Positions 38,922 through 44,146 of a stretch of DNA of 64,000 bases are shown in pieces; position 1 is the stretch's first letter, and every line of letters begins with the position of its first letter. The notes under the pieces are model-generated. The model saw nothing but the letters and a program-made list of their open reading frames with translations, was not told the origin of the DNA and made no database searches. The stretch comes from Candidatus Cloacimonadales bacterium (GTDB lineage: Bacteria > Cloacimonadota > Cloacimonadia > Cloacimonadales > DAONDQ01), in contig OY759316.1 in the NCBI GenBank assembly GCA_963662275.1, forward strand, positions 1,408,001-1,472,000, given 5' to 3'. The translations under genes and the position numbers were made by a program.

Positions 38922-38998
38922 AGATGATAGCCCATAGAGTAAGCTATGGGACTTTTAAACATTTGTGCCAGATGATAGCCCATAGCGTAAGCTATGGG
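38922..38998 (+). repeat. REPs AGATGATAG-CCCATAGCGTAAGCTATGGG (left module of tnpA locus)
   Basis: Two copies; same family at 43492-43742. Confidence 0.9.
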
Positions 38999-39034: not shown

Positions 39035-40927
39035 GGAGATGTCCCGAAACTAAATGATAGAAAAATAGCAACTATTAAATATTAATCATATTACTTGACA
39101 TATTGTTATAGGGTGTATTGTTGCCTTTAAAAACTAAGCATAGAGAGAATTATGAATTTCAGAGAGCACAATCCGAATCAGGGGACACTCTATGGACTTA
39201 ATATTGAAGAGAGAATACCTCCCCAGCACATGGTTCGTTATGTTAACGATGTCGTTGAGCAACTGGACTTATCTGAGCTATATACAAGATACTCTGATGA
39301 AGGTACACCTGCTTATCATCCCAAGATGATGTTGAAGATCATTGTATACGCCTATATCAATGGTATTTATACCTGTCGGAAGATAGCTAAGGCTGTTCGG
39401 GAGAACATCAATTTTATCTGGCTGGCAGGAGAACAGGAACCTGATTTCAGAACGATCAACACCTTTGCCTGGACTAAGTGTTCTGATATTCTTATTGATG
39501 TATTTTATCAGGTAGTACTGAAAGCATCATCATTAGGATATCTTGATCTCGACACCTGTTTTGTTGACGGGACGACGATTCACGCAAATGCCGGCAAGAA
39601 TTCCTACATCTGGAAAAGCAATGCGCTTCGTTATCAGGAACTGGTCAAGACACGAGTTGAGGGATTGTTTAAAAAGATCGAGGAATATAATCAGGAAGAG
39701 CAACAGCAATATGGAACCGCTGATCTTCTTGAGCTTGGTGAGCAATTGCATGCGGTTGAATCAGAGAAAACTGCTACAGTCGCATCTGAACAGATCAGAG
39801 ATAGACTGGTCTCAGCAGAAAACAAGCTGAAAGAAGCAATGTCCCGACTACAGAAAAATCATCCGTCAGATACTCGGGCTATCAAGAAAATCAAATCTCT
39901 TTTGCGCGAAATCTCCAAATCAAAGAGCAATGATATAACTAAGCTGGAGAAATATGAGCAACAGCTTGAGATAATTGGAGAAGGACGCAGCAGCACATCC
40001 AAGACTGATAATGATGCCACATTTATGCGATTGAAAAATGGACAGCTGGCACCGGGTTATGTTGCCAGTATCGGAACTTCAGAGCAATTTGTCACAGGCA
40101 TTCACTTATTCAATATCCCTAAAGAAACCGTTGAATTTCCCAATCTCATGGAGCAAATGCATGATGAATTGGGACAATATCCTACCGACGTTGTTGGAGA
40201 TGCTGCCTATGGCACTGCGCTGAATTTGAATTATGCTGCTGAAAAAGAGATAACAAGCTATCTCAAGACCCAGGATTATAAGAGAGATTATCGGGACTCT
40301 CTTCTGACAGGCTTCAGCTATGATGAGGAGCATGATGAGTGGGTCTGTCAATTTAATCGGAGACTGGTCAAAATCAAGGAAGAAGAGACAGAGAAGAACG
40401 GTCCGAAACGAATCGTGAAAACCTATATATGTAATGACTGCAGAGAATGTCCTCACAATAAAAAGTGTATTCCCTACAAGGATAAAACACATAAATCACT
40501 GACCTACGATCCTCATATAGCTCCACTAAAACGTCAGACCGTCAATAATCTGCTTTCTGAAAAAGGCGACAAGCTGAGAAAGCAAAGAGGCATCGAACCG
40601 GAGGCTGTATTTGCTTTCATGAAGTGGAACAGGAAGTTTGAGAGATTTACTGTCCGTTCATTGAGAAAATGCAAGGAACAGTTATCCCTCCTCTTTTTAG
40701 GACATAATATAGGGAAAATGTTTCTGCACTTACAAAATACTGAAGGAAAAGCCTGATGAAGACTCTTCCTACCAGAATTCAAACATGAATTAGGTAAATA
40801 TTACTCCGTTTTTCCTTGTCTTTGCATCGCTTTTCGGAAACTATTGAGTAATTTAGTTTGCCTGTAAAAACAATCACATATTTTACAACAGAAGAAAATA
40901 AAATCATGCTAGTTTCGGGACATCTCC
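39035..40927 (+). mobile_element. IS1182 family insertion sequence (1893 bp)
   Basis: Perfect 18-bp TIRs ggagatgtcccgaaacta / tagtttcgggacatctcc; no target duplication visible. Confidence 0.92.
39152..40756 (+). CDS. IS1182 family DDE transposase
   Basis: AYHPKMMLK, PDFRTI, VDGTTIHANA, SKTDNDATFM, GDAAYG, R..EPEAVF..MK. Confidence 0.93.
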   Translation: MNFREHNPNQGTLYGLNIEERIPPQHMVRYVNDVVEQLDLSELYTRYSDEGTPAYHPKMMLKIIVYAYINGIYTCRKIAKAVRENINFIWLAGEQEPDFRTINTFAWTKCSDILIDVFYQVVLKASSLGYLDLDTCFVDGTTIHANAGKNSYIWKSNALRYQELVKTRVEGLFKKIEEYNQEEQQQYGTADLLELGEQLHAVESEKTATVASEQIRDRLVSAENKLKEAMSRLQKNHPSDTRAIKKIKSLLREISKSKSNDITKLEKYEQQLEIIGEGRSSTSKTDNDATFMRLKNGQLAPGYVASIGTSEQFVTGIHLFNIPKETVEFPNLMEQMHDELGQYPTDVVGDAAYGTALNLNYAAEKEITSYLKTQDYKRDYRDSLLTGFSYDEEHDEWVCQFNRRLVKIKEEETEKNGPKRIVKTYICNDCRECPHNKKCIPYKDKTHKSLTYDPHIAPLKRQTVNNLLSEKGDKLRKQRGIEPEAVFAFMKWNRKFERFTVRSLRKCKEQLSLLFLGHNIGKMFLHLQNTEGKA

Positions 40928-41059
40928 TTATATTGTTTTCGATTCAATTGATCCCCCCATCCACCCATAATTTACATTATGGGCTATCATCTTGCATCTG
41001 TGCGGATTTGGACGGTATTGTTCATTCATTGATCCACCCATAGCTGACGCTATGGGCTA

Positions 41060-42929
41060 GTACGATAGTGATAGATAGAAATCGGATGGGTGCAAGTCCC
41101 ATTTCAGGCTACGTCATGCCTGGTAGTCTATGTAACTGCTTCATCGTGAGATGGGGTGGGGAGTAACAAATGACGAAACAGCAGTCCGTAGGATAACGAA
41201 CTCGATTCGGCAGGATACAATGTCGAGCTTGCTAGCCTTAAGCGAAGACCAAAATCTTCTGGAATGATGCACTTCGGGTGAACCGGAGTTTCCCCCGGAA
41301 GATGGCAGACAGGCTGAGATGACGTGCAAAAGCCATGTACTGATTGTATCAAGTGACTGGAGACGGAATGTTGTGAAGGTTTCTATCTCAAGCTATGAGA
41401 CCTGCTGATGGGAAGAGACATCAGCAGGAGTCAGAGTGTTCATAGTAGCGATGATATTCAGGACACTATAACCTGAAAGTAGCGAAGGGGCACAGGAAAA
41501 TGAATTTTGAAAGGAGTATTGATGGAAGATCAACGTTCATTATTGCCGAAAACGGCTAAACAAGAACGAGAAATCCCTCCGCAATGGAGTTGGGTGGAAC
41601 CGTCAGTATGGTCTGACAAAATGTTGGCAGCGCTCGAAATGGGCGTCAAAGGTGGAAAATGGTTCAGTCTGATAGACAAGGTATATGCCATGGCAAACCT
41701 TGCATCAGCTTGGAAACACGTGGCATCCAACAGAGGTAGTGCCGGTATCGACAATGTCAGCATCCAGCACTACAAAAGACATGCGCTGGCAAGATTAGTA
41801 CGAACCTCCGAACTGTTGCAAAAGGAAGCGTATCAACCCAATGGAATCAAACGTGTCTGGATAGATAAACCGGGCAGTAAGGAAAAGAGACCTTTGGGCA
41901 TACCGACCGTCACGGACAGAGTAGTACAAACAGCACTGCGCAATGTAATCGAACCGATATTTGAACAGGGATTTGCCGAACACAGTTATGGCTTTCGTCC
42001 CAAACGCGACTGCAAAGATGCTTTAAGACAAGTCGATGGACTTCTCAAGCAGGGATACGTCTTTGTTGTGGATGCAGACCTGAAAGGATACTTTGACAGT
42101 ATACCGCAGGACAAGCTGATGAAGCGTGTAGGAGAAAAGATAGCAGACGGGAAAGTTCTGAATCTTATCAATGACTATTTGAATCAAAAAGTAATGGATA
42201 CAACGTCAACCTGGACACCGGAAACGGGAACACCTCAGGGAGCAGTTATCAGTCCATTACTGGCAAACATTTATCTGAATCCTCTGGACTGGCTTATGGC
42301 AGGCAAAGGCTATAGAATGATACGCTATGCGGATGATTTTGTAGTCATGTGTCAAAGTCGAGAGGAAGCAGAAATGGCTTTATGTACAATAGGCGAATGG
42401 GTTGAAAAAGCAGGTCTGGTTTTGCATCCTGAAAAGACTAAAATACTGGACGCAGAAACGGAAGCGGTGGAATTTTTAGGATACCACTTCTTCAAGGGTA
42501 AAAGATACCCCAGACAGAAGAGTATCAACAAGTTCAAAGACAGCATCCGTAAATGTACCGGACGCAGTAATGCCCACAGCTTACAAACCATAATAGCTAA
42601 AATCAAGCCGATTCAAAGAGGTTGGTTCGAGTATTACAAACACTGTTACAAAACAGTCTTTCCTAACTTGGATGGCTGGGTAAGACACAGGCTACGCAGT
42701 ATCCTCAGAAAGAGGAAAAAGCGCTATGGTATTGCCACAGGAAAAGACAATATCAGGTATCCAAATTACATCTTTGATAATGCTGGGTTTTTCTCATTAA
42801 CCAAAGCCCATCAGGAATTATGTCAATCTCTTAAATGAGAACTCGTTTTCTGGAGAGCCGTATGCGGGAGAACCGCACGTACGGTTCGGAGGGAGGGGAG
42901 CCAGTAATGGATTACTCCCCTACCCCTAT
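41060..42929 (+). mobile_element. Group II intron (1870 nt) inserted in a REP
   Basis: Starts GTACG, ends CCCCTAT; DV gagccgtatgcgggagaaccgcacgtacggttc at 42855-42887 and DVI; removal restores tatgggcta|tcatcttgcatc as in the uninterrupted copy at 40978-40998. Confidence 0.92.
41522..42838 (+). CDS. ltrA: Group II intron reverse transcriptase/maturase without endonuclease domain
   Basis: RPLGIPTVTDR, SYGFRP, DADLKGYFD, GTPQGAVISPLLANIYL, RYADD, FLGY, GWFEYY; ATG 41522 after AAGGAG. Confidence 0.95.
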   Translation: MEDQRSLLPKTAKQEREIPPQWSWVEPSVWSDKMLAALEMGVKGGKWFSLIDKVYAMANLASAWKHVASNRGSAGIDNVSIQHYKRHALARLVRTSELLQKEAYQPNGIKRVWIDKPGSKEKRPLGIPTVTDRVVQTALRNVIEPIFEQGFAEHSYGFRPKRDCKDALRQVDGLLKQGYVFVVDADLKGYFDSIPQDKLMKRVGEKIADGKVLNLINDYLNQKVMDTTSTWTPETGTPQGAVISPLLANIYLNPLDWLMAGKGYRMIRYADDFVVMCQSREEAEMALCTIGEWVEKAGLVLHPEKTKILDAETEAVEFLGYHFFKGKRYPRQKSINKFKDSIRKCTGRSNAHSLQTIIAKIKPIQRGWFEYYKHCYKTVFPNLDGWVRHRLRSILRKRKKRYGIATGKDNIRYPNYIFDNAGFFSLTKAHQELCQSLK

Positions 42930-42969
42930 TCATCTTGCATCCGTGCGGATTTGGACGGATAAGATATTA

Positions 42970-43413
42970 TCATGAATTATGATCATTTATTACCGGATAT
43001 CCATGGGCAATTAAGAATTTGTTGAATTCTTCCTGATAATCGATCTTTTTGTGATGTTCTTCCTGGTTTTGAATGTACTCTTTCACTTGAGGGATATTGG
43101 ATTTGCTAACGCTGAAAATGCCATATCCAATTTGCCAATGAAATTCGCCTTCATATGTTTCATGCATCCATTTGCTTGAATTAGCCTTGATTGTTCTAAT
43201 AAAATCAGAAATACCCATGTCTTTTGGAAGAAGAGCCAGGATGTGGACATGATCTTCGGTGCCATTCATTTGAATGACCTTACCTTGAACGTTACGGATA
43301 ATTCCGGTTATATATTCAAAAAGACGAGTTCGGACTTCCTGATTGAGCCAAGGGTTGCGGTTTTTGGTTGTAAATATGATGTGTGCAGCTACATGAAAAT
43401 ATGAATGCGGCAT
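42970..43413 (-). CDS. tnpA: IS200/IS605-superfamily Y1 HUH transposase, probably REP-associated
   Basis: HIIFTTK, DHVH, IKANSS, WQIGY, YIQNQ; REP modules on both sides; no tnpB. Confidence 0.9.
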   Translation of the reverse strand: MPHSYFHVAAHIIFTTKNRNPWLNQEVRTRLFEYITGIIRNVQGKVIQMNGTEDHVHILALLPKDMGISDFIRTIKANSSKWMHETYEGEFHWQIGYGIFSVSKSNIPQVKEYIQNQEEHHKKIDYQEEFNKFLIAHGYPVINDHNS

Positions 43414-43491: not shown

Positions 43492-43935
43492 AGATGATAG
43501 CCATAGCGTTGTACATGTTTGCCAGATGATAGCCCATAGCGTAAGCTATGGGACGGCGAGTAGATTTTTTTAAACATTTGTGCCAGATAATAGCCCATAG
43601 CGTAAGCTATGGGGAAGGAATTCAATGATTTTGCACACGTTGTGTGCCAGATGATAGCCCATAGCGTAAGCTATGGGAAAGGGATTCAATGATTTTTAAC
43701 ACGTTGTGTGTTAGATGATAGCCCATAGCGTAAGCTATGGGGATACGTTGAATGGGAAATGTTGATAACGAGGTGTCACCCCGACGTGGTTTATATTGTT
43801 TTCGATTCAATTGATCCCCCCATCCACCCATAATTTACATTATGGGCTATCATCTTTCATCCGTGCGGATTTGGACGGTATTGTTCATTCATTGATCCAC
43901 CCATAATTTACATTATGGGCTATCATCTGGCATCC
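43492..43935. repeat. Right REP module of tnpA locus
   Basis: Four full and one partial forward REP, then two inverted variants cccataatttacattatgggctatcatct. Confidence 0.9.
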
Positions 43936-44146
43936 TTGTGGGATTTAAATTTAACAGGATATCGTAACCTGCTTACTCAATAGTGGCAATGACAGGATAT
44001 TTGAACGGAGTTAAGAATAACAGACTTTACTCAATTCATCGGGCTGAAGAATCAATCTATAAGCCTATCCAGAAAAATCTGATTGACACGAAAACTGAAT
44101 CAATGATAAGCGAACTAGAAGAAAATATTACTATTATGGAGGATTT

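Follow-up and report, generated by a model that had tools for sequence, protein, structure and literature searches.

A group II intron from outside class C that probably homes to REP elements through a DNA hairpin and EBS1/EBS3 pairing

A complete group II intron in a 64,000-nt stretch of a Candidatus Cloacimonadales bacterium genome (hereafter the window) is probably an endonuclease-less, non-class-C element that is targeted by a hairpin together with EBS1 and EBS3 pairing and that uses the copies of a REP family as homing sites. The intron is an intact, recently active mobile element and, judged by sequence comparison, its lineage lies outside class C and is poorly described. Its features are listed here in window coordinates.

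41060–42929, plus strand: complete 1870-nt group II intron, delimited by an Rfam match and identical genome copies.
41060–41064, plus strand: intron 5′ terminus GUACG, with the A at position 3 offset by U at 41164 in GAGUAA (epsilon–epsilon′).
41111–41116, plus strand: alpha, ACGUCA, with its partner alpha′ (UGACGU, 41320–41325) in a terminal loop.
41227–41243, plus strand: EBS1 stem-loop, GCTT/AAGC closing a 9-nt loop, with EBS1 (UAGCCU) at 41233–41238.
41299, plus strand: candidate EBS3 (A), pairing with the first 3′ exon base, T at 42930.
41522–42838, plus strand: reverse transcriptase/maturase of 438 aa without an En domain and with YADD intact; alternative TTG start at 41507.
42855–42887, plus strand: domain V, 33 nt, with an AGC triad, a 4-bp distal stem and the 5-nt loop GAGAA.
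42890–42929, plus strand: domain VI and intron 3′ end (...CCUACCCCUAU), from the Rfam alignment.

The 3′ end of the intron was placed at 42929 because the match of domains V and VI to RF00029 (42853–42929; 63.6 bits in an Rfam search, cut-off 40) reaches this position; the A at 42922 is the likely branch nucleotide. The 5′ end, at 41060, reads GTACG; the original prediction had remarked on GUACG in place of GUGYG, and the unusual A is compensated by the U in epsilon′. Across 14 aligned sequences an A is accompanied by U and a G by C in 13, lineage L035 being the exception. In the alignment to RF02001, the epsilon′ region of the window intron (GGAGUAA) lies opposite GAAGGAA of the model, and the corresponding sequence in a second, g6-type intron family of the host genome (family B) is GAAGUAA; in class C, the epsilon′ bulge carries a conserved AGGAA. 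The alpha–alpha′ pairing covaries in the L022, L025, L024, L028, L035 and L046 lineages when the 14-sequence alignment is read by inspection. By eye, the alpha′ loop is closed by GGCU/AGCC, a stem absent from the RNAalifold call, which on the 14 sequences reproduced the stem of EBS1 and a small number of further stems but not domain I as a whole.

The basal stem of domain V has 9 bp and its distal stem 4 bp; a 2-nt bulge separates the two, and a 5-nt loop caps the distal stem. Its AGC triad had been identified correctly, but the domain is not full length as had been stated, since it has 33 nt against the standard 34 and carries a 5-nt loop. Loops of this size are found in the window intron and in L022, L023, L033, L024, L025 and L026; domain V has 31 nt in family B and in its Desulfotalea relative. 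Domain I of the window intron scores 31.9 bits against RF02001, nearly the gathering score of 32, and the g6-type introns of the host genome match this model well, which together indicate that the RNA is not far from class IIC.

The intron ORF contains RVT_1 (8e-40) and GIIM (2.8e-17) domains and nothing else, in line with the predicted absence of an En domain. The final RT tree consisted of 23 rows, with the class E reference absent. Two lineages, L035 and L038, were omitted from both RT trees as fragmentary, L037, a long branch, was kept in the first tree but not in the final one, and L021, L027, L036, L029 and L034, being near-duplicates or partial, lay outside both. As reference introns we used the RefSeq forms of two among AE006469, DQ363750 and CP000320, plus CP000433 (pRHL2). 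The identity of these RefSeq records was checked at the published coordinates, which showed an annotated ltrA (L040, L041) or an ORF of the published size (L039). This analysis placed the window RT inside an 11-row clade (support 100/99) that lies outside the clade formed by class C and g6 (98/95), in a tree whose deep branches are weakly supported (78/62 and 81/84). In the same tree, class C is joined by integron intron L045. Within the 100/99 clade sits the intron of plasmid pBN3 (23112–24969), labelled 'Unclassified' in Table_3 of Miura 2022 (PMC8919778). The window RT thus clusters with an intron of the 'Unclassified' IEP types (U1–U3) of that study, and family B clusters with its g6 example.

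Both the RT phylogeny, a clade separate from C+g6 in a tree of 23 rows without class E, and domain V, with its 4-bp distal stem and AGC triad, agree with the original prediction that the intron is non-IIC. That it is instead an ordinary class C intron lying behind a palindrome, as many of them do, appears unlikely to us. Targeting by a hairpin and a short IBS1 would be in keeping with class C, as would the RF02001 score just under its cut-off, and the top relatives of the RT among solved structures are IIC enzymes (7uim, 215.7 bits; 6ar1, 210.3 bits), ahead of a IIB RT (148.9 bits) and LtrA (127.9 bits). However, the g6-type RT of the same genome scores far higher on the same IIC structures (290 and 281 bits), and the 100/99 clade of the intron is excluded from C+g6. 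The domain V architecture also departs from that of class C, EBS1 pairing extends over 5–6 bp rather than 3–4, and the clade member listed in Table_3 of Miura 2022 appears there as 'Unclassified' and not as C.

The locus that the intron interrupts comprises the following features.

40964–41008, plus strand: intact REP-1 (hairpin, GGGCTA, TCATCT, second hairpin), the uninterrupted form of the target; matches RF01687 (Acido-Lenti-1) at 26 bits.
41037–41059, plus strand: 5′ half of the interrupted REP-1, consisting of the hairpin at 41037–41056 and CTA, with IBS1 (GGGCTA) at 41054–41059.
42930–42960, plus strand: 3′ half of the interrupted REP-1, consisting of TCATCTTGCA and the second hairpin, with IBS3 the T at 42930.
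42970–43413, minus strand: RAYT-like Y1 transposase gene (PF01797, 8.6e-29), with REP-1 copies on both sides.
43530–43945, both strands: six further REP-1 copies beyond the RAYT gene (minus strand, four; plus strand, two), all of them unoccupied potential targets.

The hairpin at 41037–41056 reads CCCATAGC-TGAC-GCTATGGG and is followed by CTA at 41057–41059, so that the intron begins 3 nt past the stem, exactly where the original prediction had put it. The same prediction held that removal of the intron restores a REP. Joining 41059 to 42930 in silico gives GGGCTA followed directly by TCATCTTGCA, the identical reading to that of the intact neighbour at 40964–41008, and TCATCT also comes next after 16 of the 22 unoccupied REP-1 copies in the genome, which bears this out. 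Genome-wide, the REP-1 pattern CCCAT-N10-ATGGGCTA is found 26 times, with an intron in 4 of these copies and none in 22. The window holds 10 matches against 0.12 expected, a number reached in none of 100 shuffles, and these lie around the PF01797 gene, four to its left and six to its right; the nearest on the left is the interrupted REP-1, which adjoins the 3′ end of the RAYT gene. The locus therefore has the REP/RAYT arrangement, in which multicopy intergenic palindromes flank a Y1 (IS200-like) transposase gene. This RAYT-associated REP-1 family also matches the Rfam Acido-Lenti-1 model, at 37.9 bits for the copy at 43900–43945, and an RF01687 match was present within 5 kb of RAYT homologues in 4 of 4 cases. 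The Rfam Acido-Lenti-1 'sRNA' family appears to be a REP.

The host genome contains six full copies of the intron, 100% identical over positions 1–1870 and with exactly the same ends, plus one 5′ fragment. All seven follow repeated palindromes that end in G-Y-T-A and are continued by T as the first 3′ base: four in REP-1, two in REP-2 and one in REP-3. The flanks of the other copies thus contain nothing that refutes the original prediction, and 4 of 7 copies sit in REP-1, as expected if sibling REPs are homing sites; the presence of three palindrome families nevertheless means that the target is not limited to the REP-1 sequence. REP-2 has 11 exact genome copies, 2 of them occupied, and its copy at 3137687 adjoins another RAYT gene, at 3137201; REP-3 has 5 genome copies at up to 2 mismatches. 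A genome scan that required G[CT]TA after a hairpin of 7 bp or more returned 342 sites, just 26 of them REP-1, and all 4 occupied ones were REP-1. Six of the seven copies are co-oriented with fork movement (origin near 4.17 Mb, terminus near 2.15 Mb).

In the contigs of four sequencing runs over 40700–43300, which are repeat-broken unitigs whose depth over the intron is about 7 times that over its flanks, no junction skipping the intron across 41060–42929 was found. Low-depth joints 41211>41425 and 41211>42850, with sides shorter than 31 nt, were also seen in the contigs of these four runs.

Two of the host-genome copies, at 1482825 and 1484835, are 2010 nt apart with identical 3′ flanks and may represent one insertion followed by tandem duplication. 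This shared downstream flank, together with the position of the window copy beside a RAYT gene, is what might be expected had REP-plus-intron units been spread passively, copied through recombination or RAYT transposase activity with no homing by the intron itself. We regard passive spread as the least probable of the readings considered here, a very remote one: beyond the palindrome, the flanks differ between at least six sites; three palindrome families are involved; and the intron ends are base-exact in all copies. Nor would passive spread be expected to produce covariation of EBS1 and EBS3 with the exons across lineages.

The loop at 41227–41243 aligns to the EBS1 loop of RF02001, at the A-run of the model. 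The complementarity between its UAGCCU and the exon end had been noticed from the letters, and the alignment together with cross-lineage covariation identifies it as EBS1. In 10 related introns or lineages, 54 of 60 positions pair between EBS1 and the last 6 exon bases, a result matched by none of 20000 permutations, and non-cognate combinations pair at a mean of 2.74 of 6 positions. The EBS1 of the window intron pairs with REP-1 at 6 of 6 bases. More generally, EBS1–IBS1 pairing covers 5–6 of 6 positions at cognate sites, and 4 contiguous bp at REP-2 and REP-3 sites. By inspection, pairing is 6 of 6 in the pBN3/Cupriavidus lineage, and an intron of a genome of the same order (G017) presents UAGGG to the exon sequence CCCUA. 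Internal mismatches in cognate pairings occur in L022 (position 2) and L027 (position 3), and 2 of the 6 sites in G017 end in CTC, resulting in a mismatch at −1. The candidate EBS3 and IBS3 form A-U, G-C and U-A pairs across lineages, with L024, L026, L035 and G017 tested after the choice of the column.

Inspection of the variable segment preceding the EBS1 stem in the window intron, L024 and L025 revealed no exon complementarity that could correspond to EBS2, and the three hairpins used by identical copies have nothing in common at −7 to −12. Because identical copies sit behind three unrelated hairpins, we conclude that no EBS2 pairing is used. Of the three guide pairings raised by the original prediction, EBS1 and the candidate EBS3 are therefore supported and EBS2 is not. 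Sequence-specific homing of the IIB type, in which the REP would be read by EBS1 and by an EBS2 pairing that was not found, with the hairpin incidental, could account for the 6 of 6 REP bases paired by EBS1, and domain V and alpha′ do resemble those of IIE/IIF (Nagy 2013; PMC3753933), classes with EBS2 motifs. It is nonetheless very improbable given that the three hairpins upstream of identical copies are unrelated in sequence from −7 to −12 and that the segment 5′ of the EBS1 stem showed no such complementarity on inspection in the three introns; moreover, homologues whose exon sequences are quite different all keep a hairpin 3–7 nt upstream.

Insertion sites are enriched in hairpins. When perfect stems that end 0–7 nt upstream were counted, 14 of 23 sites had one of 6 bp or more, versus 2.0% of random positions, and 20 of 23 had one of 5 bp or more, versus 5.9%; the stems preceding three short fragments of a sister intron are just 4 bp. 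In another Cloacimonadales genome (G001), a related intron splits a hairpin repeat, GCTGGCGTTCCCAGT, between GTTC and CCAGT; with up to 1 mismatch allowed, this repeat has 78 occurrences there and the control 0. All 6 copies in G017 follow, by eye, one REP-like hairpin family, whose stems differ by compensatory changes.

Taken together, these comparisons suggest that recognition consists of a hairpin, 4–6 bp of IBS1 and 1 bp of IBS3 rather than of one REP sequence, and such recognition would therefore imply an IIC-like mechanism; as REPs are by nature hairpins, recognition of the hairpin and of the REP sequence are not fully separable within the host genome. In the mechanism that we propose, the intron would reverse-splice into single-stranded DNA directly downstream of a DNA hairpin, with EBS1 (UAGCCU) recognizing the last 4–6 bases of the 5′ exon and the one-base EBS3 (A) recognizing the first 3′ exon base (T). 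If IIC introns are a guide, the hairpin itself would be contacted in a structure-specific manner in place of EBS2 pairing, and cDNA synthesis would probably be primed at replication forks, because the intron has no endonuclease. Since EBS1 perfectly matches GGGCUA, the conserved foot and tail of the RAYT-associated REP, the multicopy REPs would provide the cognate homing sites, with sister families that end in GYUA as 4-bp secondary sites. REPs may in this way offer the intron a 'safe target', as originally suggested.

A broader hypothesis, which we put forward tentatively and at slightly less than even chances, is that the intron represents a hairpin-reading non-C lineage (structure plus 5–6 bp of EBS1), present in several phyla and specialised on RAYT-associated REPs as renewable landing pads. 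If this is true, hairpin targeting is older, or has evolved more often, than a 'class C only' view allows, and the Rfam Acido-Lenti-1 'sRNA of unknown function' would be recast as a REP element. An association between group II introns and the Acido-Lenti-1 motif was noted previously, and homing of introns would account for such a link; for annotation, group II introns are to be expected inside this family. The main text and 8 supplement files of Weinberg 2010 contained no sentence tying Acido-Lenti-1 to group II introns. For REP/RAYT biology, the intron would be a second mobile element competing for these hairpins in their single-stranded form. IIC-style target choice is displayed here by a separate RT clade that has an IIE/IIF-like domain V, with guide pairings mapped by covariation and a natural multicopy target defined. 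With its three natural hairpin families and the 22 REP-1 sites that are empty, this one intron provides a system for the study of hairpin reading, which could address whether this is ancestral or convergent.

According to the review of Zimmerly & Semper 2015 (PMC4424553), all lineages but class C home to specific sequences. The window intron resembles class C introns such as B.h.I1 (PMC1702495; PMC4424553) in being En-less and inserted 3–7 nt past a DNA stem-loop, in using only EBS1 and EBS3 and no EBS2, with the stem-loop at the place of IBS2, in being multicopy with a lagging-strand-template bias, and in having a domain I that aligns to RF02001. It differs from them in that its RT clade lies outside C+g6, in pairing 5–6 bp of IBS1–EBS1 at cognate sites rather than 3–4 bp, and in targeting REP-type repeats without a T-run rather than terminators. 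Class IIC is defined by a CGC triad and a domain V distal stem 2 bp shorter (Toor 2006; PMC1702495), whereas the window intron has AGC, a 4-bp distal stem and a 5-nt loop. Section 9 and Table_3 of Miura 2022 (PMC8919778) place the En-less IEP types g6, U1 and U2 outside class C and report them immediately after predicted terminators, on the basis of a distance statistic only; EBS1/EBS3, a REP link and RNA features, none of which form part of that account, are given here for the window clade.

With IIE/IIF (Nagy 2013; PMC3753933) the intron shares a 5-nt domain V loop and a small ribozyme, about 550 nt once the ORF is excluded. In IIE/IIF, alpha′ occupies the tip of an Id3 stem-loop, and the terminal loop assigned by eye to alpha′ in the window intron, whose stem was absent from the RNAalifold call, may correspond to it. 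In contrast to IIE/IIF, which have clear EBS2–IBS2 pairing and home to specific sequences, the window intron uses no EBS2 and has a hairpin before every site. The IIC-attC introns of integrons offer a parallel in that their target is likewise a repeated imperfect palindrome used in single-stranded form by another recombinase, although the repeat family and partner enzyme differ (attC and IntI versus REP and RAYT), as does the protein clade, integron intron L045 falling with class C. The only entry linking group II introns with REP/RAYT that we found in the literature is in the table of Tobes & Pareja 2006 (PMC1525189), in which 2 of 9 copies of a Pseudomonas putida group II intron lie in REPs. 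REPs are landing sites in both cases, but whereas that intron has a minority of its copies in REPs and no mechanism was given, the window intron has 7 of 7 copies behind such palindromes and an EBS1 that matches them.

On the plus strand, a complete group II intron of 1870 nt was delimited, the 3' end of which matches the Rfam model RF00029 for domains V and VI (DV/DVI) at 63.6 bits (cut-off 40). A domain search of the intron ORF, which encodes the reverse transcriptase (RT), revealed no endonuclease domain. The intron and its neighbourhood comprise:

41037-41056: hairpin CCCATAGC-TGAC-GCTATGGG, directly upstream of CTA (41057-41059) and then the intron
41060-42929, plus strand: complete group II intron
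41522-42838, plus strand: intron ORF, 438 aa, RVT_1 and GIIM domains
42970-43413, minus strand: Y1 transposase (RAYT-like) gene, 147 aa, PF01797, 8.6e-29

The window corresponds to C1:1408001-1472000 of the source genome (G000), which holds six intron copies that are 100% identical across all 1870 nt, plus one 5' fragment of 272 nt with 98% identity. Also recovered by this search were three sister-intron fragments of ~105 nt (77-79% identity), along with nine weak hits to a second family of introns. The identity of the full copies and the intact YADD motif suggest that the window intron was recently active. Contigs of two runs also carry joints within 41211-42850 (41211 to 41425, 41211 to 42850 or 42852, and 41451 to 42850) at low depth and with sides of only 27-30 nt, which could represent ORF-less derivatives or relatives.

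As originally observed, the intron begins 3 nt past the hairpin, with the stem ending at 41056, and its removal restores a REP: the sequence GGGCTA/TCATCTTGCA obtained by joining 41059 to 42930 is also that of the uninterrupted neighbouring REP (40964-41008). This family (REP-1; CCCAT-N10-ATGGGCTA) has 26 copies genome-wide, and its motif occurs ten times in the 64-kb window versus 0.12 expected. The intron directly follows 4 of the 26 copies, while TCATCT follows 16 of the remaining 22. REP copies lie on both flanks of the RAYT-like gene, and the occupied REP is the one closest to its 3' end. REP-1 matches the Rfam Acido-Lenti-1 model RF01687 with 37.9 bits at 43900-43945. This 'sRNA' acts like a REP in G000 (38928-38998, 40964-41059 and 43530-43945 in the window), with 34 matches at E ≤ 0.01, ten of them above the cut-off, and a match at most 5 kb from all four RAYT homologues; among relatives it is patchily distributed (8 of 21 genomes) yet multicopy, two genomes having 53 and 56 matches, and it builds tandem arrays that repeat every 87 nt. 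Between the REP copies at 38928-38998 and 40964 lies a DDE transposase ORF of 534 aa (39152-40756; DDE_Tnp_1_6, DUF772), so that this REP cluster also harbours a mobile element of a third type.

REP-1 is the site of four full copies, CGCCGGATTGAAATCCGAGCGTTA that of one full copy and the 5' fragment, and CCGGGCTTACGCCCGGGTGTTA that of one full copy. The CGCCGGATTGAAATCCGAGCGTTA palindrome has 11 exact copies in G000, or 19-20 when 2-3 mismatches are allowed, and one copy adjoins a second RAYT homologue; the CCGGGCTTACGCCCGGGTGTTA palindrome has five at up to 2 mismatches. As these two are also repeated, every one of the seven sites is a repeated palindrome that ends G-Y-T-A, and the 3' exon begins with T throughout. 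Scanning G000 for G[CT]TA behind perfect hairpins of 7 bp or more gave 342 sites, of which REP-1 makes up only 26; the four occupied sites detectable in this way are all REP-1. Outside the window, at 1482825-1486704 of contig C1, two identical copies occupy consecutive REPs of one array. Because these copies, at 1482825 and 1484835, lie 2010 nt apart and have identical 3' flanks, they possibly reflect one insertion and a tandem duplication rather than two homing events. The three sister-intron 5' fragments (L008-L010; C1 514287-514391, 2539099-2539203 and 3889056-3889162; ~140 nt) derive from an intron that starts GTGCG and are all preceded by copies of a small fourth palindrome (AACCGCGTAAATGCGGAGCTA-like), which ends AGCTA, AACTA or AGCAA and is tandemly repeated at 514 kb.

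Domain I aligned end to end with RF02001 at 31.9 bits (cut-off 32) under permissive thresholds, and the loop at 41227-41243 coincides with the model loop 'GCaaaacA'. The equivalent loop of the second intron family, which follows terminator hairpins with T-runs, is AAAAA; together, these observations identify the loop as the exon-binding site EBS1. We read the 5' junctions of homologues from other genomes (RT identity 45-72%). Across ten lineages, 54 of 60 positions pair between the six central loop bases and the last six exon bases (IBS1), versus a mean of 2.74 of 6 for non-cognate combinations, and none of 20000 permutations reached the observed sum. Loop and exon likewise agree in the pBN3/Cupriavidus lineage (ACUAAA with UUUAGU) and in an intron of G017, a genome of the same order (UAGGG with CCCUA). 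The proposal that UAGCCU is an EBS1 matched to the REP arm is thus substantiated by 6/6 pairs with REP-1 and by covariation across lineages. Only four contiguous bases pair with the other two occupied repeats, marking REP-1 as the cognate site. For EBS3, the candidate at 41299, the base past ...CGG, pairs with the first 3' exon base as A with U, G with C and U with A; L024, L026, L035 and the G017 intron were examined after the column had been chosen, and the loci L046 and L048 agree only with a one-column shift. The unusual GUACG start has a compensating change: U or C of GAG[U/C]AA covaries with the A or G at intron position 3 in 13 of 14 aligned sequences. As three hairpins of unrelated sequence precede identical copies, EBS2 pairing cannot be required.

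Some relatives occupy comparable sites. In a Cloacimonadales genome, a homologue interrupts GCTGGCGTTC/CCAGT, a motif with 78 occurrences at up to 1 mismatch versus 0 for a reversed control, and in G017 an intron 68% identical in DNA occurs six times, each time downstream of a hairpin from one family whose stems differ by compensatory changes. On plasmid pBN3 the target hairpin occurs three times with an intron copy beside each. Two introns listed as 'Unclassified' stand back to back at 104914-108630 of this plasmid (NZ_CP022993.1; 104914-106771 and 106773-108630; Miura 2022 table, PMC8919778), the hairpin adjoining only the second. Five Cloacimonadales RT ORFs from three genomes (L021, L022, L023, L027 and L033), otherwise open and conserved, share an in-frame TGA within a short insertion at locus base 2218 (5/5), with a second TGA in L023; this could reflect readthrough, recoding or shared decay.

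A perfect hairpin with a stem of at least 6 bp ends 0-7 nt upstream of 14 of 23 junctions versus 2.0% of 40000 random positions, and one of at least 5 bp precedes 20 of 23 versus 5.9%; the three exceptions are the sister-intron fragments. By analogy with IIC biology (Toor 2006, PMC1702495; Zimmerly & Semper 2015, PMC4424553), the window intron may read the hairpin itself, and its cDNA may be primed at replication forks. Six of the seven copies in G000 are co-oriented with replication, consistent with this picture. The second family, with 11 DV/DVI matches on C1 (for example locus L017, 1536700-1538794), has a terminator-like hairpin before every copy, followed by a T-run in all but one (2210993), and 11/11 copies are co-oriented with replication. 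It shows an EBS1 loop AAAAA, a DV of 31 nt and 45-52 bits to RF02001, and its RT clusters with a Desulfotalea intron labelled g6 in Miura 2022 (PMC8919778).

Among solved RTs, the window RT is closest to IIC enzymes (215.7 and 210.3 bits, versus 148.9 for a IIB RT and 127.9 for LtrA); the second-family RT, only 38% identical to the window RT, matches these IIC structures with 290 and 281 bits. A tree of 23 RTs (431 columns) was labelled from Toro 2013 Table S2 (g1, g3/F) and Miura 2022 Table_3 (PMC8919778; C, g6, D, Unclassified), with one row, an intron carried by a class 1 integron, labelled by context. The window RT falls inside an 11-row clade (support 100/99) that takes in the 'Unclassified' pBN3 intron, while C and g6 form a separate clade (98/95) and support for the deeper branching is low (78/62 and 81/84). 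By this protein clade, in a tree whose rows include no class E reference, and by its DV, the window intron falls outside class C, in line with the original assignment. With sites, EBS1, RT clade and DV in agreement, the central proposal of a REP-targeted non-IIC intron is upheld.

Literature searches found no description of these pairings, the REP link or these RNA features. Section 9 of Miura 2022 (PMC8919778) reports that g6, U1 and U2, placed near C on the tree of that study, also tend to directly follow predicted terminators, so hairpin proximity outside class C is already published there as a statistic. Hairpin targeting and the presence of introns in REPs have each been described before, as separate phenomena. 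DV of the window-intron lineage measures 33 nt and combines an AGC triad with a distal stem of 4 bp and a 5-nt loop, and alpha' lies in a terminal loop (alignment read by eye). The DV loop and alpha' position are as listed among IIE/IIF features in Nagy 2013 (PMC3753933), whereas the distal stem and AGC differ from the shorter distal stem and CGC by which Toor 2006 (PMC1702495) defines IIC. Taken together, the window intron is predicted to function like a IIC intron, with a guide tuned to a RAYT-linked REP.
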